Source of the DNA: Gemmatimonadota bacterium
GTDB taxonomy: Bacteria; Gemmatimonadota; Gemmatimonadetes; Palauibacterales; KS3-K002
Assembly (NCBI GenBank): GCA_039586795.1
Contig: JBDHJS010000015.1
Span: 32,001-96,000, forward strand
DNA length: 64,000 bases
Direction of reading: 5' to 3'
Of this stretch, positions 8,099 through 20,241 are shown piece after piece (within the stretch, counting starts at the first letter, position 1; the number at the start of each line of letters is the position of its first letter). The position numbers and the translations under genes were made by a program. The notes beneath the pieces are model-generated. The model was given only the letters and a program-made list of their open reading frames with translations. It searched no databases and had not been told where the DNA came from.

Positions 8099-8294
8099 GG
8101 GTGAAGAAGATGCGTATGCTTGGTCGGAATGCCAACCCACTGCCTCAGGCGCTTGAGACGCGCCGACGCCGGAGGTATTATCAGCCATTGGCAATGCCCC
8201 ATCAGCGCCCGAGACAGCGGCGGGTATCCTGCAACAAAAGCAGATTTCATACATGCCGTCGACCCGGCGGTGTTGCTCCATTCGCGAGGGTCAC

Positions 8295-9062
8295 ATGGAT
8301 AAGGATCGAAGAAGGACGTTGGCCTTCCTGGGCGGCGGCGTTGCGGCGGGAGTCATCGGCCCGGCGTTCCTCGGCTGCGCGCCTGCCGACGACGTCGCGG
8401 ATGCAGCCCGACCCAATCTGCCCTTTCCGTACGCGAAGCTCGATCCGGACCGGATAGGAGAGGCGGGGTACAAGAATTTCTACGTCGGCGACTGTATGTA
8501 CGGCGTGCTGGCGACGATCGTCGATGCTTTGGCGGAAGAGGTCGGCGAACCGTTCGCATCGTTTCCAACGGACGTTACACGCTACGGTGCAGGCGGCGTG
8601 GTGGGGTGGGGAACGCTGTGCGGCGCGGCCAACGGAGCGGCGATGGCGATATATATGGTGTCAAGAGATCCCGCCCGGGCCATCAATGAGGTGTACGGCT
8701 TTTACGAAAGCGAGGCGTTGCCCAACTTCATTCCCAGCGATGCCCGATTCCAGCTCCCGTCGTCCGTATCGCATTCGACGTTGTGCCATGTCTCGATCTC
8801 CAAGTGGTGCGACGCTTCCGGCCACAAGTCTTACTCGCCGGAGCGGGCCGACCGCTGCGCACAGTTAGTGGGGTCGGTGGCGAGGTACACGGTCGAGGTA
8901 CTAAACGCGCAGTTCGACAGTGTATTCCAGCCGGTGCATCCCATCTCCGCCGCCGCTGCCGCCTGCCGCGGTTGCCATGACCGGGGAGGCGTGTTAGAGA
9001 ATTCCCTGGGCATGATGGATTGCACAACCTGTCACACCAATCAAACCTCCGGTCACCCGTAG
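8295..9062 (+). CDS. C-GCAxxG-C-C family protein / split-Soret cytochrome c-like
   Basis: Tat-like RRRTLAFL signal, DCMYG, TLCGAANG, LCHVS, RC, and two C-terminal CxxCH motifs (CRGCH, CTTCH). Confidence 0.85.
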   Translation: MDKDRRRTLAFLGGGVAAGVIGPAFLGCAPADDVADAARPNLPFPYAKLDPDRIGEAGYKNFYVGDCMYGVLATIVDALAEEVGEPFASFPTDVTRYGAGGVVGWGTLCGAANGAAMAIYMVSRDPARAINEVYGFYESEALPNFIPSDARFQLPSSVSHSTLCHVSISKWCDASGHKSYSPERADRCAQLVGSVARYTVEVLNAQFDSVFQPVHPISAAAAACRGCHDRGGVLENSLGMMDCTTCHTNQTSGHP

Positions 9063-9073
9063 GCAATGACGAC

Positions 9074-9709
9074 ATGATGAAACGCGCAAATATGATATCA
9101 GTGGCCATCGGCGCCGTGGTAGGTCTTGGCGCCGGGGTGCTGATCGGCCGGGCGACGGCGCCCGATGTGGACGCGATGAGCCGAACCTTCGGCGTGGAGC
9201 TCGAGGGGCGGCCGTTGTTGGGTTCCAAGAACGCGCCGGTCACGATCATCGAATTCACCGACTACGAGTGCGCGTTCTGCCGGCGCTACAACCAGACGAC
9301 TTTCCCGGTTTTGCTCGAGCAGTACGGAGACCGCTTGAGCTACACGGTGCGTCACTTCCCGATTAGCTACCAGCATCGAAGGGCCCATAAGGCAGCGCAA
9401 GCGGCGGAGTGTGCCGGCGATCAGGGGAAATTCTTCGAGTTCCATGACGTCCTGTTCAAGCAGACGCCGGCGCTGGAAGAGAACAGCCTGATCCGCTACG
9501 CGGCGATGATGCGCCTGAATACAGACGTGTTTCGGGATTGCCTGCAATCGGGTGTGAAGTCGGACATCGTTGATGATGACATGCAGGCTGGGATCGCCCG
9601 TGGCCTACCGGGCACGCCGGCATTCTTGATCAACGGACGAGTACTCTACGGAGCGCAACCCACCGAGGTGTTTCAGAGAACCATCGAGCGGGAGCTATCG
9701 GAGAACTAG
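9074..9709 (+). CDS. DsbA-family thioredoxin-fold protein
   Basis: N-terminal TM, APVTIIEFTDYECAFC, GTPAFLING, GAQP. Confidence 0.9.
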   Translation: MMKRANMISVAIGAVVGLGAGVLIGRATAPDVDAMSRTFGVELEGRPLLGSKNAPVTIIEFTDYECAFCRRYNQTTFPVLLEQYGDRLSYTVRHFPISYQHRRAHKAAQAAECAGDQGKFFEFHDVLFKQTPALEENSLIRYAAMMRLNTDVFRDCLQSGVKSDIVDDDMQAGIARGLPGTPAFLINGRVLYGAQPTEVFQRTIERELSEN

Positions 9710-11260: not shown

Positions 11261-14200
11261 ATGCATGCTCGTCGGTTAGCCGTTGCCGCGTTTGTGGTCA
11301 CCGCCCTCGCATCCCCGCATTCGATAGTTGCGCAGACCGGCATGCCACCGGAGAAGGGAGGGACGGTCTACTCGCTGGGCATGCCCCCGGTCTACAAGGG
11401 TGACGCCGCGGCGACGCTCGGCGTCGATCGCCCCGGTTCGGACTCCGAACTAGCGGCACTGTTCAGCATTGGCGTGCACAAGGACCTAATGAGCCCGGTG
11501 GTTGGGCTGGCAGCTTTGGGCCTCGAAGGCTACTTCGGTTACCGCAACCGTGACGTAGACGGCGGCGGCCGGGCGCTGTTCCTGATACCGGCTCTCCATT
11601 TCACCATCGGCGCGGATTACAACATCCCAGACGAGCGATTCGATCTGTTGTTGCGCCTCGAGCTGCCGTTTCGACGCGGGGGCATCCTAGGCCGCGGCAC
11701 ACAAGTTCGTTTCGATTACCTGCCTACACGAGGCAACACGTTCGGTATCGGCATCGACGTACCGCTCTGGGGCCGCAACATCGGGGCGACTCGTCCCAGA
11801 CGCTCGTCAGTGAAGATCCAGAAGCCGCCGCTGCGTGAGATCGAGCCTGAGGAGCGGACTGAAGGTCTCGACGAATCGATACAGCGCTTGTGGGAGGGAG
11901 CGGAGTGGATCGCCAAGCTGGCCGCGCCGTTCACGGACAGGGGCGGCGCGAACCCACAAGAGGCCTACGCCCAGACCGTGGCGCAGCTCCAGGGTCACAT
12001 TGCAGAGACCGGAACGCGATATCCCAACGGACGGTCGTTCAACGAAGAGACCCGCGTATTTCACGACGAGCTCGATCGTGCGTTCTCGATCGCCGCGGCG
12101 GGCCGCAGGCTGTCGGAAGGGGAGAGCAGCGCACTGGGCCGAGCATTGAGCGTTCGAGCTCGGCAGATACTGCTCGACGAAGTGATGTTCCCCTACAACC
12201 GGCTACTCGGCCAGCGCAAGTCACCTGATATCCTCGACCAGTTCGTTGCTGTCGGACACGCCGAGTTCGCCCGTTGGGCAGTATCCGAGTCGGGCGTGCC
12301 GGAGGATCGTCTGCGCGAGACGTTCTTCGTGTTCCAGAGCCTGGTCGACATCGTGGAGCAGGTGCGGGCGCTGCAGCGGGAGCGCTGGAAGGACTCGCGC
12401 TTCGTCTGGCTGCCGCTGCAACTGGGATTGCGGGCCGAGGACCACGACACGCGGGCCGAGCTCGACGATATCATAGAGCGCGCTGTGGATGACCGTTTCA
12501 CGTATGGCAACGGCGTTTGGTACGTGATGAACGAGGAGTTCCAGCTCGAGATGGCTCGCTCGGTTCACCGGGCGGAAGACTACCACGTCCTGTGGATCCA
12601 CGACTTCCGTGGCAATAACGCGGAGGGGGAACCGGACAAGCTCGCCTTCGAGCATGTGGTCGGGTCGTACCTCCGCTCGCTGACACAGCGGGTTAGGGAA
12701 TACGATGAGACAGGCAAGTTGCCGCTCTACTTCATCTTCATCGATCAGCATTACTTTGAGCTGAACAACGCGCGCCGGTGGTTCCGGGTGCTTCGCGAAC
12801 CCATGGACTACGAGTTGAGCCTGCCCAAGGGCTATGAGGCGTGGGAGGAGCGATTGGCCGCCGCCCAGGATAGCTTGCGGCAGGCGGTTGCCGAATCTAG
12901 GGCGCTACAGATCGAGGCCAGCCAGTACGGCGAGAAGTGGCTCAAGAAGCGGATCAAGGTCCACATCAACGTCACCAATCCGGCCGATTTCTCGTTCAAC
13001 AGCTTTCACGTGGCCGGCATCATTCCGGTTCCCGATAACTTAATGCGGGACCACCGTAAGATCGCCTTCTACGACATCACAGAGGAGGATCCCTACAGAG
13101 GGCTCGCCATGTATACCGGTATGGGGATCGGCGAGCACTACGCGGGGGCGAACTGGGAGGACCGGGCGGTCATGGTACAGGGACCCTCGGCACTGGCGGT
13201 AAAGAACGCCGCTCGTCACCTGCTCGAAGCTCAGGGATTCACTCCACAGGAGATCCCGATTCCGCTACGAGCCCTCCCGAAGCCGGCGGACTACGACGCG
13301 AGGGTCGACAGCGTGCGGCGGGAGATTCGAAGCGTATGGGGCGTCGAGACCACTCGCGCATTGGAGCTTCACAACGAGACCGGTTACCAGTCGAAACCGA
13401 TCAACGTGGCGAAAGCCGTTTTATACAGCCTGATGCCGCGGGGGAGCCTGGTGAAGGTCCCGGATTCGCTGTGGCAGAGCTATATCTACGCCTCGCTGCT
13501 GGCGGGCAGCGCGCTGCGGGGCTGCAAGGTATTGATCTACGCTCCATCGTTGGCTTCGGCCCCAAGCAACGCGGGTCCGACCATGGCGAGGGCGCACGGC
13601 CTTTTCAGCGCGCTGGTCTACTTCGCGAACGAGATGGAAGGTGATATTCGAGCGGAGGGTGGGCTGTTCAAGATCGGTCTCTATGCGCCGCGATCTGCCG
13701 TGGGTGACCTGCGCGGCCGTATCCTCCAGGCGCGCTCGCTGGAAACGCCGTGGCTGAGAGAGGTCTATCCCGCTAATCCGGCCATACAGGCGGTGTTAGA
13801 CAGCCTGGACTATATACTGGACGCCGCGGGATACGAGAGCGACTACCTGGTTGCCTCCGATACGACAGAGAGGCCGAAGCTCCATTTGAAGGCGAACTTC
13901 TTCATTACCGACGAGGCCTGGCAGGCGCTGATCCGCCCTCGGGAGTGGGGCCCGTTGATGCATGAGTACGTGGAGTATATGGCACGCATGACAGGCCCTG
14001 CCGACCAGCGTCCGGACGTCCGCGAGATGCCGCAATCGACCCAGGCCGCGGTGATCGACCTGGTCCGAGCGGTCGAGCGTAATCTTCCGGCGGATCAGCG
14101 CGAGCGTGTATTCGCATACCTTACGGTAGGCTCGGCAAACATGGACTACCGCAGCATGGTGATGGACGGCGAGGTGATGGTGACGGTGAGCGGCTGGGAT

Positions 14201-14341
14201 GCGTTGCCGGGACTGCTCGACTTCATCATGCTGGTCGGCTTGTGCGAGTGGATCGACACGCAGGAGGAACTCGACGCTTTGCTGCCGCCGCCGGGAGGGA
14301 TGACGCGGAAGATTGCTAATCTGATGAAGTTGGCTCTTTAG
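11261..14341 (+). CDS. Secreted phospholipase D (HKD) superfamily protein with barrel-like N-terminal region
   Basis: Signal peptide; HRKIAFYD followed by TGMGIGEHY..WED; LHLKANFF and later VGSANMDYRS..DGE. Confidence 0.75.
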   Translation: MHARRLAVAAFVVTALASPHSIVAQTGMPPEKGGTVYSLGMPPVYKGDAAATLGVDRPGSDSELAALFSIGVHKDLMSPVVGLAALGLEGYFGYRNRDVDGGGRALFLIPALHFTIGADYNIPDERFDLLLRLELPFRRGGILGRGTQVRFDYLPTRGNTFGIGIDVPLWGRNIGATRPRRSSVKIQKPPLREIEPEERTEGLDESIQRLWEGAEWIAKLAAPFTDRGGANPQEAYAQTVAQLQGHIAETGTRYPNGRSFNEETRVFHDELDRAFSIAAAGRRLSEGESSALGRALSVRARQILLDEVMFPYNRLLGQRKSPDILDQFVAVGHAEFARWAVSESGVPEDRLRETFFVFQSLVDIVEQVRALQRERWKDSRFVWLPLQLGLRAEDHDTRAELDDIIERAVDDRFTYGNGVWYVMNEEFQLEMARSVHRAEDYHVLWIHDFRGNNAEGEPDKLAFEHVVGSYLRSLTQRVREYDETGKLPLYFIFIDQHYFELNNARRWFRVLREPMDYELSLPKGYEAWEERLAAAQDSLRQAVAESRALQIEASQYGEKWLKKRIKVHINVTNPADFSFNSFHVAGIIPVPDNLMRDHRKIAFYDITEEDPYRGLAMYTGMGIGEHYAGANWEDRAVMVQGPSALAVKNAARHLLEAQGFTPQEIPIPLRALPKPADYDARVDSVRREIRSVWGVETTRALELHNETGYQSKPINVAKAVLYSLMPRGSLVKVPDSLWQSYIYASLLAGSALRGCKVLIYAPSLASAPSNAGPTMARAHGLFSALVYFANEMEGDIRAEGGLFKIGLYAPRSAVGDLRGRILQARSLETPWLREVYPANPAIQAVLDSLDYILDAAGYESDYLVASDTTERPKLHLKANFFITDEAWQALIRPREWGPLMHEYVEYMARMTGPADQRPDVREMPQSTQAAVIDLVRAVERNLPADQRERVFAYLTVGSANMDYRSMVMDGEVMVTVSGWDALPGLLDFIMLVGLCEWIDTQEELDALLPPPGGMTRKIANLMKLAL

Positions 14342-14657: not shown

Positions 14658-15326
14658 GTGGAATTCACACTCATCAGTCTGTTCGGCGCCGGCGTGCTCA
14701 CCAGCCTGACGCCGTGCATCTACCCCATGATCCCGATTACGGTGGGCGTGATCGGCGGCAGCGCGGCAGGCGAAGGAGCATCGCGTAGACGGACCGTTGC
14801 TCTGACGCTCACTTACGTCGCCGGGCTGGCGATGTTCTACGCGATCCTCGGTGTCATCGCCGGATTGACCGGTCACCTGTTCGGTACGATCAGCGCGAAT
14901 TTCTGGGCCCGCTTCGCCATCGGTAATCTGCTGCTCGTATTCGGGCTCGCTATGCTGGACGTGATTCCCGTGTCGGCGCCGGGTCGATTGGTTGCCTGGG
15001 CTTCACGGTTGCGCGGCGGGTCGCTCCCCGCAGTGTTTCTGCTGGGCGCGACATCCGGCATCGTGGCGGCACCGTGCGGGGCACCGGCGTTTGCGGCGGT
15101 GCTGACCTGGGTGGCCGGCACCGGTAGCGCGGTTCTGGGGTTCGTCTATTTGTTCGTGTTCTCGCTGGGCATGACCGCGCTTCTGGTTGTGGTGGGCATA
15201 TTCTCCGGAACGCTGGCGGCGCTGCCTCAGTCGGGTCGCTGGATGCTTTGGATCAAGAAGGCGGCCGGTATCATCATGCTGGGCGTGGCGGAGTACTATT
15301 TCATTCAGGCGGGAATGGTGATTTGA
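14658..15326 (+). CDS. ccdA: CcdA / DsbD transmembrane-domain protein
   Basis: SLTPCIYPMIP and AAPCGAP motifs, about 6 TM helices, GTG start. Confidence 0.88.
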   Translation: MEFTLISLFGAGVLTSLTPCIYPMIPITVGVIGGSAAGEGASRRRTVALTLTYVAGLAMFYAILGVIAGLTGHLFGTISANFWARFAIGNLLLVFGLAMLDVIPVSAPGRLVAWASRLRGGSLPAVFLLGATSGIVAAPCGAPAFAAVLTWVAGTGSAVLGFVYLFVFSLGMTALLVVVGIFSGTLAALPQSGRWMLWIKKAAGIIMLGVAEYYFIQAGMVI

Positions 15327-15844
15327 AGGATCGAAGGTTCTGGGCGTTGTTTCTGTTTGGCGCGTTGTGTTCGGTCCCGATGAGCGGGGCAAGGGCGCAA
15401 GATCAGATCGGCTTGCCCATCGGTGCCACGCCTGAGGCGGTGGAGCTCGAAGACCTTGAGGGCAACAGCGTTGACCTGGGTCGCTACATCGGCAGCGGAA
15501 GTCCGGCTGTACTGGAATTTTGGGCGACCTGGTGCAACAACTGCAAAGAGCTGGAGCATCAGATGCTCGCCGCCTTCAGGAACTACGGCGAGGGAATCGA
15601 GTTCGTCGTCGTCGCCGTTGCCGTGAACCAGAGTCTGCGACGCGTTCGCCGTTACGTAGATGAGAATGAGATGCCGGGGCGCGTGTTGTGGGACGCAAAA
15701 GGAAGAGCGGTCCGCGCCTTCATGGCTCCGGCTACGTCCTATATCGTTGTGATCGATGCAGCCGGCCGCGTCGTCTACACGGGCGTTGGCCCAGAGCAGG
15801 ACATCGACGCGGCCGTTCGAAAGGCGCTCGAGCGACAGGATTGA
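15323..15844 (+). CDS. TlpA-family exported redoxin
   Basis: TTG start overlapping the ccdA stop, signal peptide, EFWATWCNNC, VVIDAAGRVVY. Confidence 0.88.
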   Translation: MKDRRFWALFLFGALCSVPMSGARAQDQIGLPIGATPEAVELEDLEGNSVDLGRYIGSGSPAVLEFWATWCNNCKELEHQMLAAFRNYGEGIEFVVVAVAVNQSLRRVRRYVDENEMPGRVLWDAKGRAVRAFMAPATSYIVVIDAAGRVVYTGVGPEQDIDAAVRKALERQD

Positions 15845-15874
15845 GCGCGACCACCGCCTGCGACTCGGAAGTGA

Positions 15875-16447
15875 CTAGTTGCCCTCAGGCTCCTCCTCCG
15901 GCAACAAGGCGGCGATCGCCTCGCCCAGTTCGGTGTAGGCTGTAGGATCGATCTCCCTGAACGGCACCGCCCGGAACGCGATCTTCCCGTCGGGCCCCAC
16001 TACGAACAGGTTGCGGTTCGTCATGCCGGGGCGTGAGGCCAGGGCGCCGTACATTTCACCGACCTTCGCATCCGGATCGCTGGCCATCAAGAACTGGAAC
16101 TGGTCATCCCGGGCCCACTCGTAAAGAGCTTCTACCGGGTCGGCACTGATGGCAATGAGTATCACGTCTTGCCCGTCGTTGAACAGCTGTGCGTACTGAT
16201 CACGGTACGCATGCATCTGAATTGTTCAACCACGGGTCCGTGCCCTGAAGAAGAACGCCAAGACGATGGTCCTCCCACTGTAATCGCTGAGTCGGACTGG
16301 ATCCTTGAGCTCTCCGTAGCGTGTGGCGCCTCGCAGCTCGAAGTCCGGCGCATCCTGACCGATCTCCAGGGGTGGCGACGTCTGGGCGTGGAGCGGTGCG
16401 GCCCCAGCTATCACCACAGCTGCGAGCGCGGCGAAAAGTCCTTTCAA
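15875..16447 (-). CDS. Exported peroxiredoxin (AhpC/TSA, Bcp-like), probable selenoprotein with in-frame UGA
   Basis: ORFs 16226..16447 and 15875..16216 are in one frame: GQDAPDFEL...VLAFFFRARTRG-UGA-TIQMHAYRD...AISAD...RNLFVVGPDGKI. TTG start with AGGAGG RBS. Confidence 0.88.
16184..16219 (-). promoter_or_regulatory. Candidate bacterial SECIS hairpin
   Basis: On the minus strand just 3' of the UGA: UGCGUAC-CGUGAUCA-GUACGCA perfect 7-bp stem, extendable by UG/CA and CAG/CUG pairs. Confidence 0.65.
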
Positions 16448-16621
16448 GATTGGCCTCCTGTCGCCTCAGTCCGAACGCATGTTGGATAGATATTCAACAT
16501 TCTATTGCCAACCATGGTCCTCTAACAAGCGGCAGTTCTTGGTTGGCCGGCTGTGGCGTCCTTAGATACTTGAGCGAGTTAGAGCGACAAGCTAGGATCA
16601 GTCCTAATCAGGAGGACTTCA

Positions 16622-17780: not shown

Positions 17781-19280
17781 TCACTTCTCGCAGGTCAGAG
17801 CGGAATCCACGCCCTCAGAGAAGCCGGCTCTCGATCGCAGATCTTCCGGGCCGGCAAAGGGGGCATGGGCTCTGGCCTCGAGCCATGCTCCGACCGCCGC
17901 CTCCTCGATTCCAGGAATGAGACGTATCACTCCCTCCTGAACCGTGTTTGGATCGAACGACAGCGTCCTCGGTTCACCCAAAGCAACCAGCTGGACGTCC
18001 ACGCCGTTTACCTGACAGCGGAACTGGGGTCCGAGGCGCGAGTAGAGGATCATCGGGTCGCTTTCCACTTCCTCACGCCACCGCCGCCGGGCGGCGGCTA
18101 TCTCTTCTCTAAGCAGGTCGCTGAAATCCAGTCGCAACGCAGCCAGGTAATGATCCCGCCACAAGTCTGATGCAGCGGCGTCCACGAAGACGCCGTGCGT
18201 CAGGTCGAGAAAAACGTCGAGTACTTCAGTCGCCTCCTCCGGATACAGGCGGCGGTAGGTCTGGATGTAGTCGACAAGGAAAGGTGAGTCGGCCGATAAC
18301 TGCTGGACCGTAAGCAATTCCGAAAGCACGGAAAGCCCGCGCTTCATACGAGCTCGAACGGTATCCGGTGTTGGAAAGGACCGGCCGTGCGCGAGAAGGC
18401 TGAAGAAGACGCTGGCGTAGAAACCCTCTGACTGGAGAAGCTGATTCGCATCGCGCAGGCTGGAGAAGTCGCGCGCCTTCTCCATCTGTATTCTCAAGTA
18501 GTCCGGCTCCTTATACGCGCTTTGGAAGGCGAAGTTGTTGTCTCGGATCTCGTTGTACCGTGCCACGGTTTGAGAAAAAGTGAGCAGGTCTGCCGAGTGT
18601 TTGAAGTACTCGGCGAGGAAGCCAGGTTGATCACCAAATAGGAACTGACCGTGCCGGTATCTGTTCACCAGCCAAGGTTCCGGCGTGAAATGCGCGACAA
18701 CCGTCTCGAGGTGGATGGCGTAACCCTCGTCAAGTGCGGTCCCGCGGTCAGTCAGTGCAGCCGTAGTATGTGGAATCGCAGCGATGTTGCGGTCGGGAAT
18801 CTCCTGGCCGCCGGCCAGCAACGCCAGCACCATATGGCCGGTCTCGTGAAGCAGCGTCGTGGTAAAGCGCCAGTCCTGAGCATCGAGTATCATGAAGGGC
18901 GTGCGCGGGTGAACTGTGCTCTCGTCGCCTTCAACCAGACGGAAGCCTACTGCGGCGTAGTTGCCCTGGGGCTCCAGCGCGATGTAGTAACGACCGATGT
19001 CATCGGCGGAAATGCCGCGATCGAGTACTTCGGCTACGGCATCCGCGTATAGCGTCAAGGCCCATCGAGCGGAAGCATTGTCGAGCCACGCATGGTACGT
19101 GGCCAACTGAGCAGAATCCTCCACGAGCACATAGGTGGGAAGGTCGTCGCGTGTTGATTCTGCCGGCTCCATGAAGACGATATCGAGGTCCGCTGTTTGC
19201 GCCGGCGCGCCGATAGCGGACAGGCCCAGCGCTACGCAAGTCAGCGGGAGGGTCATCACGCTACGTAGGGTTTTCTCCAC
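17781..19280 (-). CDS. Secreted HExxH metallopeptidase-like protein with C-terminal helix-hairpin-helix-like domain
   Basis: LLHETGH and downstream DEGYA; C-terminus FDPNT..LIPGI..EARAHAPFAGPEDL. GTG start with GAGG RBS. Confidence 0.65.
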   Translation of the reverse strand: MEKTLRSVMTLPLTCVALGLSAIGAPAQTADLDIVFMEPAESTRDDLPTYVLVEDSAQLATYHAWLDNASARWALTLYADAVAEVLDRGISADDIGRYYIALEPQGNYAAVGFRLVEGDESTVHPRTPFMILDAQDWRFTTTLLHETGHMVLALLAGGQEIPDRNIAAIPHTTAALTDRGTALDEGYAIHLETVVAHFTPEPWLVNRYRHGQFLFGDQPGFLAEYFKHSADLLTFSQTVARYNEIRDNNFAFQSAYKEPDYLRIQMEKARDFSSLRDANQLLQSEGFYASVFFSLLAHGRSFPTPDTVRARMKRGLSVLSELLTVQQLSADSPFLVDYIQTYRRLYPEEATEVLDVFLDLTHGVFVDAAASDLWRDHYLAALRLDFSDLLREEIAAARRRWREEVESDPMILYSRLGPQFRCQVNGVDVQLVALGEPRTLSFDPNTVQEGVIRLIPGIEEAAVGAWLEARAHAPFAGPEDLRSRAGFSEGVDSALTCEK

Positions 19281-19335
19281 CGATAGATCCTCGCTGTGGT
19301 TGTTAGCACGGCGTGTAATCGAGGTAAGCTCGAGT

Positions 19336-20241
19336 CTAATCAGAAACAAAAAGGAGAATATGAAACTGGTCGGCGACTTGGTAGCTGAGTGCCAGCTGGC
19401 CTTCTAGAAAGCCAAACCCGTGCACGTTTTGCAGCGCCTCCAAGAAGCGTGCTTCCAGGTTCATGTCTCCGTCTGGGCAGGCCATTCGAGTCGAGCCGAT
19501 GGGGCCGAACTTCAATACGCCGGGTGCGGATTCCGTCACCGGACCAAAGTAGCGGTTACAGCCAGCTGAGCCGGAAACCTGTCCGTCGGTGACCGCGAGC
19601 GAAACCCGGAGTTCGGGCGACACCGGCTCGCCGATCGCCAGATGGGTCAGGACCCACTCCTCCGCTTCCAGGTCAGAGACGGACAGCTCTCCTGTGAGCC
19701 GCGGCGGCAACTCTGCGAGCGCCGCGTTCTCAATGACCCATGTGCGCGTGGCCTTCTGCGTAGGGCAACATGCGGCGTCTTGCGGTCCGTGCTGTATCAC
19801 GTCGAGTTCGACTCCTGCGGCGGTCAGGCGCATCATTCGGACCTGAACGCGATCGCCTACCAGCGCCGTACCCAGATTCGCGACTTCGTCGCCTTCGTGA
19901 CCCACGACAGCGATATACAGATAGGAACCGGAGCCGCCCGAGCTCTCCGAGAGGAGGACGACTGCTTCTGGGGCGCCATCGCCGTCGAGGTCACCACTCA
20001 CCCACAGTCGCTCAAGGAGGACCACCGACGCGCGAGTGGCACCATCGGGCGCAAACGGCTCGCCTTCCCACCGGCCATGCTCGAGGGCGATCGGCTCTTC
20101 GTATATGCCCTCGTACGTCGTGTTCGCTGCATCTTCGAAGGCGATCGTGGTGGCGCTTCTGTCGCCGTCATGACCTCGCCCGCATGCCGCGAAAACCAGC
20201 GCGGGAGCAAGGGAAGCGATGCGCCAAGGGATGTCGGTCAT
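19336..20241 (-). CDS. META-domain lipoprotein
   Basis: FAAC lipobox, GDLDGDG..GGSG, ACCP, and META signature GSAGCNRYFG...STRMAC; start overlaps the upstream stop. Confidence 0.85.
   Translation of the reverse strand: MTDIPWRIASLAPALVFAACGRGHDGDRSATTIAFEDAANTTYEGIYEEPIALEHGRWEGEPFAPDGATRASVVLLERLWVSGDLDGDGAPEAVVLLSESSGGSGSYLYIAVVGHEGDEVANLGTALVGDRVQVRMMRLTAAGVELDVIQHGPQDAACCPTQKATRTWVIENAALAELPPRLTGELSVSDLEAEEWVLTHLAIGEPVSPELRVSLAVTDGQVSGSAGCNRYFGPVTESAPGVLKFGPIGSTRMACPDGDMNLEARFLEALQNVHGFGFLEGQLALSYQVADQFHILLFVSD

Follow-up and report, generated by a model that had tools for sequence, protein, structure and literature searches.

We show here that the minus-strand interval 16447-15875 very probably holds one intact gene for a peroxiredoxin-fold protein, whose catalytic UGA codon is predicted to be decoded as selenocysteine (Sec) with the aid of a conserved hairpin 3' of it. 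In the 64-kb window (the whole stretch of DNA that was analysed, 64,000 nucleotides), the minus-strand open reading frames 16447-16229 and 16225-15875 form a single frame that is interrupted once, by a TGA at 16226-16228. The upstream frame (16447 to 16226, minus strand) runs for 73 codons before it meets this TGA, and the second continues in the same frame to its end at 15875. The whole gene (15875 to 16447, minus strand) has 190 codons with a TTG start at 16447, one in-frame UGA and a TAG stop at 15877-15875, and the motif AGGAGG, read as its ribosome-binding site, lies at 16454 to 16459 on the minus strand, 6 nt 5' of the TTG. Read through, it yields a predicted selenoprotein of 190 residues with an AhpC/TSA (BCP/PrxQ-like) peroxiredoxin fold and the sequence ...VLAFFFRARTRG-U-TIQMHAYRDQY... 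around the UGA. Frame analysis bears out the original prediction that the two frames join across this single UGA into a 190-residue product, and the other features it had listed, namely the signal-like N-terminus, the retained NRNLFVV motif, the Arg-rich active-site loop, the replacement of Pro by Phe and the complete lack of Cys (zero residues in the read-through protein), were all found in the sequence or alignment. Its interpretation of the gene as encoding an exported selenocysteine peroxiredoxin is supported, with export and peroxidase activity predicted from sequence.

The UGA column is conserved in a way that separates two forms of the gene. An orthologue was found in 32 of 41 related genomes, at 49-99% identity and with one TGA each, and the column is identical in all 32. 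The same TGA is present in 80 of 80 public Gemmatimonadota loci, these being the best 80 of an estimated 1200 or so. Over 196 copies, all 153 that contain a TGA have it at this column, and all 43 stop-free copies have TGC or TGT there; homologues thus carry either the same TGA or a Cys codon. Close Cys homologues do exist, with the pattern FFP[KR]ART.GCT[IV]QM.AYRDQY. As to the codon itself, the only independent public record covering it reads TGA rather than TGC or TGT. This record is a 151-nt contig from an RNA-Seq library that covers 16134-16284 with identical sequence and spans the TGA; it does not prove transcription because such libraries can contain DNA. The DNA contigs of sequencing runs X1 and X3 end before the TGA, so that the spanning contig is this one RNA-library contig only.

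Immediately downstream, the RNA has the form of a bacterial selenocysteine insertion (SECIS) element. The available text of the Sargasso Sea study (PMC1088965) describes such an element as a stem-loop immediately 3' of the UGA with a guanosine within a small apical loop, and this is what we found: a conserved core at 16191 to 16210 on the minus strand, consisting of a 6-bp stem (GCGUAC/GUACGC) and an 8-nt loop, CGUGAUCA. In this genome a seventh pair, U-A, lengthens the stem to 16190-16211, giving a perfect 7 bp (16211-16205 with 16196-16190) at the position and with the pairing originally claimed. The 7-bp stem begins 14 nt after the UGA, the 6-bp core after 15 nt and the loop after 21 nt. 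An extended helix with the UGA inside its lower stem is predicted for this copy (16172 to 16236, minus strand); the 81-nt fold has a minimum free energy of -30.8 kcal/mol and z = -2.98, with equally good folds in 3 of 200 shuffles. Taken alone, the fold z-score is modest evidence, and the weight of the hairpin evidence is in its conservation.

Of 153 Sec-form copies, 145 share an identical 20-nt core, the others having GAC in the loop (seven) or an altered first base (one), and the base directly 3' of the core stem varies freely among the same Sec forms (A in 72, G in 52, C in 26 and T in 3). Only 3 of 43 Cys forms can make all six core pairs, and five Cys forms that encode the identical AYRDQY peptide do so with four other nucleotide versions. 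Codon entropy is 0-0.34 bit at codons +6 to +12 (GCG TAC CGT GAT CAG TAC GCA); elsewhere in the gene, well-conserved columns of fourfold or sixfold degeneracy mostly have about 0.8-2 bits. The hairpin core is, then, frozen at synonymous sites in the TGA forms only. Covariation adds nothing to this. RNAalifold, which retains only the 6-bp apical stem, finds a compensatory change in none of its six pairs, since the stem never varies. The lower stem is 75.7% paired over 26 distinct sequences, and the pairs best preserved in it (alignment columns 10-13 with 55-58) scarcely vary and so likewise give no covariation support. In the whole 22-pair structure of this copy, 82% of cells are paired and covariation is 0.094, against 0.078 in shuffled alignments and 0.106 in one slid control. 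With no compensatory pairs in the apical stem and a control above the observed value, we dropped covariation as proof of the hairpin.

The machinery for selenocysteine is encoded in the source genome, a point on which the original prediction had hinged. A tRNA-Sec scores 75.8 bits and is called by ARAGORN as tRNA-SeC with anticodon TCA, and selA (560.6 bits), selB (364.3 bits) and selD (375.1 bits) all score over their curated cut-offs; no tRNA gene was found in the 64-kb window itself. The selD gene has an in-frame TGA of its own, across which the frame reads GAGUACK. Among 301 sampled Gemmatimonadota genomes, the TGA form of the peroxiredoxin gene occurs in 199, of which 197 have selA at E <= 1e-60 and the other two have selB above cut-off, so that selA or selB accompanies it in 199 of 199. 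Thirty-eight genomes bear a homologue and have no selA, and selB is above cut-off in none of them. All 44 homologue matches in these 38 genomes are stop-free, and in 28 loci fetched from genomes without selA and selB the UGA column is Cys in 29 of 29 copies. These co-occurrence counts overstate the number of independent events, because related genomes are not independent.

Sequence profiles and a predicted structure agree on the kind of protein. Residues 29-158 match PF00578, whose cut-off is 26, with a score of 94.6 bits. Alignments to solved structures start at residue 29, the best being 2ywn/4g2e at 81 bits. The predicted model (pLDDT 79.8) gives Foldseek top matches that are all peroxiredoxins at probability 1.00, with the BCP/AhpE matches at TM 0.8-0.86 on the target. 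The predicted selenocysteine at UGA codon 74 (16226 to 16228, minus strand) lines up with the peroxidatic Cys in solved structures of BCP peroxiredoxins (FTQVCT in 2ywn), which agrees with the peroxidatic position proposed for the UGA; T71-R-G-U74 aligns with T-Q-V-C of 2ywn, giving TxxU. Arg145 (16013 to 16015, minus strand; NRNLFVV) matches the conserved Arg of AKRAVFVID in 2ywn and the Arg of solved Bcp, and both Arg145 and Arg70 are invariant in the orthologue alignment. By these alignments and the model, the protein has the AhpC/TSA, BCP/PrxQ-like fold of peroxiredoxins, and its catalytic positions are taken by Thr71, Sec74 and Arg145.

Its N-terminus suggests where it would work. Residues 1-22 (16382 to 16447, minus strand) look signal-like on inspection (MKGLFAALAAVVIAGAAPLHA-Q, ending in APLHA/Q), and all 32 orthologues, also by inspection, have a basic n-region, a hydrophobic stretch and an A-x-A/Q-like end. 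This N-terminal sequence is likely to direct export, and as this copy has no twin-arginine motif, the Sec translocon is the likely route. Given that the mature protein has no other Cys, an outside dithiol would have to recycle its Sec residue. Convergent to the gene, on the plus strand, lie a TlpA/ResA-like thioredoxin with the motif WCNNC, predicted to be exported (15248 to 15844; AhpC-TSA, Redoxin and Thioredoxin profiles, and ResA at 50 bits, below its cut-off), and a CcdA-type (DsbD_TM) membrane electron transporter (14658 to 15326; PF02683, 149.7 bits). The interval given for tlpA is its longest open reading frame, and the true start is probably near the end of ccdA. In all 20 related loci with 1.5-kb flanks, both genes are convergent to the peroxiredoxin gene, and the opposite flank is not conserved. 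Among public Sec loci with sufficient flank, tlpA was found in 56 of 73 and ccdA in 51 of 68.

Judging from this neighbourhood, the convergent ccdA-tlpA pair probably recharges the enzyme. We propose that SelB and Sec-tRNA(Sec) would bind the apical stem-loop whose loop lies 21 nt past the UGA and insert Sec, after which the signal-like N-terminus would send the protein across the membrane, the Sec translocon being the likely passage. In the envelope, the Sec74 selenolate would reduce H2O2 or organic peroxides, becoming selenenic acid, and would be recycled by an outside dithiol, most likely that of the neighbouring TlpA-like thioredoxin. The latter would be kept reduced by CcdA with electrons from cytoplasmic thioredoxin, following the same logic as ScsB-TlpA-PprX in Caulobacter. 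The components of such a relay (a predicted-exported peroxiredoxin, a CxxC TlpA-like thioredoxin and a DsbD-family protein) are all present at the locus.

It is unlikely, albeit a serious contender, that the enzyme is as described and is recycled by something other than the TlpA-like protein and CcdA, its adjacency to them being inherited synteny with an unrelated envelope redox operon. The genes are convergent and not co-transcribed, and the link could for this reason be synteny of that kind. The neighbourhood is missing in 17 of 73 Sec loci and in all 27 Cys-form loci, on which grounds we rejected ccdA-tlpA as a universal partner, and CcdA with a ResA/TlpA-like protein is the classic pair of cytochrome c maturation. 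However, no ResB/ResC-type gene was found beside ccdA in the window, where the upstream 1026-residue open reading frame has no Pfam match, and we set aside a cytochrome c maturation operon around it. The adjacency also persists across two families and down to 49% identity while the other flank changes. Moreover, an exported enzyme with a single Sec needs an exported dithiol, and a relay of this type is demonstrated for PprX in the available portion of PMC3322552.

The active site itself departs from the usual motif. Phe67 (16247 to 16249, minus strand) replaces the Pro of PxxxTxxC, as the alignment of FYPAAFTQVC in 2ywn with fffrartrgC in this protein indicates, and this Pro is among four residues that the accessible text of PMC3322552 terms 'absolutely conserved' in peroxiredoxins. 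The Thr71 column is Thr or Ser in 16 of 17 aligned orthologues and Gly in one, and one orthologue (L027) lacks the Thr, reading RARGRNU. Since the Pro is missing and the Thr is absent in one orthologue, chemistry other than peroxide reduction is possible, and the protein might be a peroxiredoxin-fold selenoprotein with another job, such as an envelope thiol-disulfide or sulfenic-acid reductase or a redox sensor. Such a role would also suit the unusually Arg-rich loop with its invariant Arg70, the adjoining genes for thiol-disulfide proteins, and the scores, which lie under every curated peroxiredoxin equivalog cut-off (BCP NF006960, 59.3 against 140; PrxU NF040737, 57.3 against 270); no NCBIfam model reaches its own cut-off for this protein. 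In addition, a peroxiredoxin-like protein, PrxL, stands alongside PprX as a substrate of ScsB in the part of Cho et al. (PMC3322552) available. We nevertheless consider a non-peroxidase role improbable, as Thr71, Sec74 and Arg145 occupy the catalytic columns, true peroxiredoxins make up all of the best matches in sequence and fold, and the full PxxxTxxC...R set is kept in the Cys homologues.

It is very improbable that read-through or recoding places Trp, Cys or Gly at the UGA, or that the organism has another genetic code, with no selenium involved. The sequence itself offers no more than an open frame across the TGA, and that much would suit this explanation. However, TGA is an ordinary stop here, terminating 16 of the 33 stop-to-stop frames that reach 300 codons or more in the 64-kb window; the TGA forms occur only where selA or selB is present, with Cys where both are missing; and the hairpin is kept in the TGA forms only. 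A pseudogene, a sequencing error or two separate small genes can be dismissed even more firmly, for although the halves stand as separate proteins in public collections, the TGA is kept in 153 copies and recurs identically in the independent public record, the protein is conserved on both sides of it with the catalytic Arg downstream, and neither half holds a complete active site.

With the gene read as a selenocysteine peroxiredoxin, the absence of Pro appears to go together with the presence of Sec. Among the 196 copies, the residue at the Pro site is not Pro in 146 of 153 Sec forms (104 with Phe, 37 with Tyr, 4 with Ile and 1 with Val; 7 with Pro) and is Pro in 43 of 43 Cys forms. At least nine changes between Sec and Cys fall on the tree, and the grouping of all Cys forms in one clade is rejected (p-AU 0.0067). 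There are four well-supported independent Sec/Cys contrasts, of which three fit the coupling and one is neutral (p 0.25), so that the association is suggestive and not statistically established. We rejected a strict rule linking Sec to a non-Pro residue, since 7 Sec forms keep Pro and, in the wider library, a few Cys homologues (P0051, P0039) are without it. As a tentative idea, one that we regard as somewhat more doubtful than probable, Sec and the active-site Pro may be epistatic: with Sec the Pro would become dispensable and be repeatedly replaced by Phe, Tyr, Ile or Val, and a lineage that reverts to Cys, for example after loss of the Sec machinery, would have Pro again; jointly with this, the enzyme would form with CcdA and the TlpA-like thioredoxin a phylum-wide, selenium-dependent pathway of peroxide reduction in the envelope.

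The gene is present in 199 of the 301 sampled Gemmatimonadota genomes, and yet it is stored as halves in public protein collections: of the best 150 public protein representatives, 38 start at Met78 and 12 stop at the UGA. As no NCBIfam model reaches its cut-off, pipelines will go on splitting it. If our reading is true, a selenoenzyme would operate in the cell envelope of a phylum that is widespread in soils and sediments, and extracytoplasmic peroxide defence there would be tied to selenium supply. The natural series of Sec-Phe/Tyr, Sec-Pro and Cys-Pro forms bears on the role of the conserved peroxiredoxin Pro and on the benefit of selenium, and tandem Sec and Cys copies occur in one genus.

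Selenocysteine peroxiredoxins are already known as a kind of enzyme. A 'Prx' selenoprotein family (PF00578 / COG1225, TxxU) is catalogued in the consulted text of both the Sargasso Sea selenoproteome (PMC1088965) and a 2026 review (PMC13188914), the latter citing as the founding member PrxU of Eubacterium acidaminophilum (Sohling 2001). The present protein shares with that family the AhpC/TSA fold, a peroxidatic Sec in TxxU, widespread Cys homologues and a SECIS element right after the UGA. The known motif is given as PxxxTxxU in the available text of the review, whereas this gene has FxxxTxxU. Compared with PrxU, whose model it matches with 57.3 bits, far under the cut-off, the protein differs in its signal-like N-terminus and in lacking a second redox residue. 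The term 'Gemmatimonad' was not found in the main text of the review, and among the papers listed by searches of a literature library, no title or opening of an abstract describes a Gemmatimonadota or an exported Sec peroxiredoxin.

The closest sequence and fold matches are Sulfolobus tokodaii Bcp (2ywn/4g2e), S. solfataricus Bcp4 (3hjp) and Bcp1 (3drn), and AhpE (1xxu/1xvw), with 81, 73 and 58 bits and TM 0.8-0.86. The archaeal Bcp proteins and AhpE have Cys, keep the Pro and show no signal sequence in the matched chains, whereas this protein has Sec, Phe67 and a signal-like N-terminus. In 2ywn a second Cys, which we take to be the resolving Cys, lies five residues past the first, and the same position here is His79; in having no resolving Cys, the protein resembles the 1-Cys peroxiredoxin AhpE of Mycobacterium tuberculosis. 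A close functional parallel may be PprX, described in the accessible part of Cho et al. 2012 (PMC3322552) as a periplasmic BCP/PrxQ peroxiredoxin of Caulobacter crescentus that works with TlpA and ScsB. Both are of the BCP/PrxQ type and exported (as predicted for the present protein), with a TlpA-like thioredoxin and a DsbD-family transporter, here encoded next door. PprX, as far as that text goes, has Cys, a resolving Cys, the Pro and the ScsB transporter, in contrast to Sec, no resolving Cys, Phe67 and CcdA in this case, and its relay was shown by experiment, whereas the one proposed here is suggested by the gene neighbourhood.

The two open reading frames at this locus form one gene on the minus strand (16447-15875), as the original prediction proposed. 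The frame 16447-16226 continues into the frame ending at 15875 with a TGA at 16228-16226 as the sole interruption, and read-through of this codon yields ...VLAFFFRARTRG-U-TIQMHAYRDQYAQLF... within a protein of 190 residues that does lack any Cys. The start codon is TTG (16447), with AGGAGG ahead of it at 16459-16454. TGA is an ordinary stop in this DNA, where it terminates 16 of 33 long frames. An independent contig of 151 nt, from a sediment metagenome's RNA-Seq library, spans the TGA (16134-16284) with zero differences, which excludes an assembly error there. A DNA contig of another study is identical over 15779-16216. The RNA-Seq contig is a record of the codon and no proof of transcription.

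The source genome (4.68 Mb, 97.8% complete) encodes the whole selenocysteine (Sec) machinery. The tRNA-Sec scored 75.8 bits and was called by ARAGORN as tRNA-SeC with anticodon TCA, and selA, selB and selD (560.6, 364.3 and 375.1 bits) all exceed their curated cut-offs. The selD gene (L018; contig C23:43563-44492) is itself a selenoprotein gene, reading GAGUACK across its own in-frame TGA at the known Sec/Cys position, followed by a 9-bp hairpin. A phyletic test sampled 301 Gemmatimonadota genomes; since relatives among them lack independence, its counts are descriptive. A homologue was found in 262 of them (E <= 1e-25) and the TGA form in 199 (145 among the top matches listed, 54 from a further search). 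Of these 199, 197 also carry selA (E <= 1e-60). The other two, G212 and G215 (95% and 94% complete, in 250 and 130 contigs), each have selB scoring over its cut-off, with a selA fragment in G215. Among 38 homologue-bearing genomes without selA, none has selB above cut-off; they carry stop-free forms only (44/44 matches), and the 28 loci fetched from them have TGC or TGT in 29 of 29 copies. Another 25 genomes are selA-positive with stop-free forms only. Three genomes that are flagged as unpublished (G212, G189 and G096) enter the phyletic and copy counts, and no conclusion rests on these alone.

The TGA itself is conserved. In a set of 41 genomes, the window's own and 40 relatives, 32 have an orthologue with one TGA (49-99% identity), in the same alignment column in all 32, and the remaining nine have only matches of 37% identity or less. 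Public species-representative genomes gave at least 598 pattern matches, and 572 of the 598 listed encode relatives. Two peptides, back-translated with degeneracy, served as the search pattern and left the Sec column outside it, so the codon at that column is unbiased by the scan; it is TGA in all of the 80 best loci, which are titled Gemmatimonadota, Gemmatimonadales, Gemmatimonadaceae, Longimicrobiales or Candidatus Kutchimonas. One locus (L027, with a matching public chromosome locus, L053) reads YFRARGRNU, with Gly for the Thr of TxxU and Asn for the Gly before Sec, and keeps TGA and hairpin intact. Many relatives also contain a second, distant AhpC/TSA-like frame with one in-frame TGA (genome G027, contig C1:3295527-3296057, and 13 similar places; G009, C117:16514-16990; G017, C16:6183-6608), which is 26-35% identical to the window protein and may be another selenoprotein family.

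Homologues with Cys at this column exist alongside those with the conserved UGA. When 1.84 billion representative proteins were searched with a profile, close full-length relatives reading FFP[KR]ART.GCT[IV]QM.AYRDQY were among the matches; the best 150 also include mis-annotated halves, 38 starting at Met78 and 12 ending at the stop. One 157-residue representative, P0013, reads FFYKARTKGLTVQM, with Leu in place of Sec and a divergent C-terminus; it may have decayed, or its frame may have been called wrongly.

The 7-bp stem-loop proposed downstream of the UGA is present, with arms at 16211-16205 and 16196-16190, the loop CGUGAUCA and a 14-nt gap between UGA and stem. The minimum-energy fold of an 81-nt stretch is a longer helix containing the UGA (-30.8 kcal/mol, z -2.98), and 3 of 200 shuffles fold as well. 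In the first 32 sequences, GCGTACCGTGATCAGTACGC is invariant save for GAT/GAC in the loop; codons +6 to +12 are nearly always GCG, TAC, CGT, GAT, CAG, TAC and GCA, with a codon entropy of 0-0.34 bit, compared with mostly about 0.8-2 bits at well-conserved columns of four- or sixfold degenerate residues elsewhere in the gene. The 20-nt core is identical in 145 of 153 Sec-form copies (seven have GAC in the loop and one an altered first base), and the base directly after the stem varies freely (A72, G52, C26, T3). As a codon control, all six stem pairs are possible in only 3 of 43 Cys forms, and the five Cys forms that share the AYRDQY peptide encode it in four other nucleotide versions, all distinct from the Sec core. 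The stem alignment of Sec forms contains no covariation because the stem never varies; the argument for the hairpin rests on frozen synonymous sites, not on compensatory change. The loop contains G then U, which fits the small apical loop with a guanosine described for bacterial SECIS elements (PMC1088965). In one sediment run (X1), four separate 31-32-nt contigs cover the hairpin region alone (16190-16221) with 2-3 differences each and word depths of 5.5 to 36; they probably come from other members of the community that share the conserved hairpin. The gene is real and intact, and is a predicted selenoprotein gene.

The product matches Pfam AhpC-TSA (94.6 bits, residues 29-158) and stays below the cut-off of every NCBIfam model (59.3 against 140 for BCP, 57.3 against 270 for PrxU). 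Among proteins of solved structure it matches Bcp proteins from Sulfolobus best (2ywn/4g2e, 81 bits; 3hjp, 73 bits), and alignment with them bears out the active site as first described: Sec74 faces the peroxidatic Cys, Phe67 the Pro, and Arg145 the downstream Arg, while Thr71 aligns with the Thr. His79 faces the second Cys of 2ywn, five residues past the first, in line with the proposed absence of a resolving Cys. The mature part is free of any other Cys in 151 of 153 Sec forms and in all 43 Cys forms, and the enzyme would therefore be of a one-Sec (or one-Cys) type. An AlphaFold2 model built on 17 orthologues (mean pLDDT 79.8, pTM 0.75) has Sec74 within the opening turn of helix 72-90, and its Foldseek matches are BCP, Bcp1/4 and the 1-Cys peroxiredoxin AhpE (TM 0.8-0.86 on target). 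The claimed signal peptide agrees with inspection of all 32 orthologues, whose N-termini are basic, then hydrophobic, then A-x-A/Q-like; judging from these sequences, the protein is presumably exported.

Pro, Thr and Cys, together with Arg, are called absolutely conserved in peroxiredoxins in PMC3322552, and a 2026 review gives the Sec motif as PxxxTxxU (PMC13188914). Over 196 copies, position -7 of the Sec form is F in 104, Y in 37, I in four, V in one and P in seven, and that of the Cys form is P in 43 and another residue in none. A strict rule that Sec goes with non-Pro is rejected by the seven Sec copies that keep Pro, which are confined to three genera of one family. On a quick maximum-likelihood tree (152 rows, the two trait columns masked), Sec/Cys changed at least 9 times and Pro/non-Pro at least 10 times, with Cys-with-Pro forms as sisters of Sec-with-Phe/Tyr forms at several places. 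A single Cys-form group was rejected (lnL 165.8 lower, p-AU 0.0067), under a constraint set after the free tree had been seen. With only four independent well-supported contrasts, of which three switch together and one does not (p 0.25), the coupling of Sec with non-Pro is suggestive, not established. Four genomes of one genus (G256, G309, G232 and G121; loci L193-L196) carry both forms in tandem on the same strand, 17-38 nt apart: the Sec form, FFPKARTKGU, has the frozen hairpin, which the Cys form, FFPKARTxGC, lacks, and Pro is kept in both.

Two convergent neighbours of the gene encode a CcdA-type transporter (14658-15326; PF02683, 149.7 bits) and, at 15248-15844, a TlpA/ResA-like thioredoxin with a WCNNC motif. 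All 20 of the related loci that have 1.5-kb flanks show this arrangement; the opposite flank, a PD40 repeat protein in the window, is not kept across them. Where the flank is long enough, 56 of 73 public Sec loci have tlpA and 51 of 68 have ccdA, and the arrangement is found in none of 27 Cys-form loci. From this neighbourhood, CcdA and the TlpA-like thioredoxin are fairly likely to be the reductant of the Sec peroxiredoxin. Other nearby genes encode a C_GCAxxG_C_C redox protein (8253-9062) and a DsbA-like thioredoxin (9020-9709); two large frames, one of 1026 aa just upstream of ccdA (11261-14341) and one of 522 aa on the minus strand (17781-19349), have no Pfam match.

The main value of the gene lies in annotation and in the natural experiment that it offers on the active site of peroxiredoxins. 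We found no literature on this Gemmatimonadota clade among the titles and abstract openings of the non-subscription articles searched. In Caulobacter, according to PMC3322552, ScsB reduces TlpA, which in turn reduces the exported PrxQ-type PprX; this is a precedent for such a relay, the link at the window being drawn from gene neighbourhood. TxxU selenocysteine peroxiredoxins are a known selenoprotein family (PMC1088965, PMC13188914). Compared with these, the Gemmatimonadota clade is apparently exported, has a single redox residue, mostly lacks the Pro and adjoins ccdA-tlpA.
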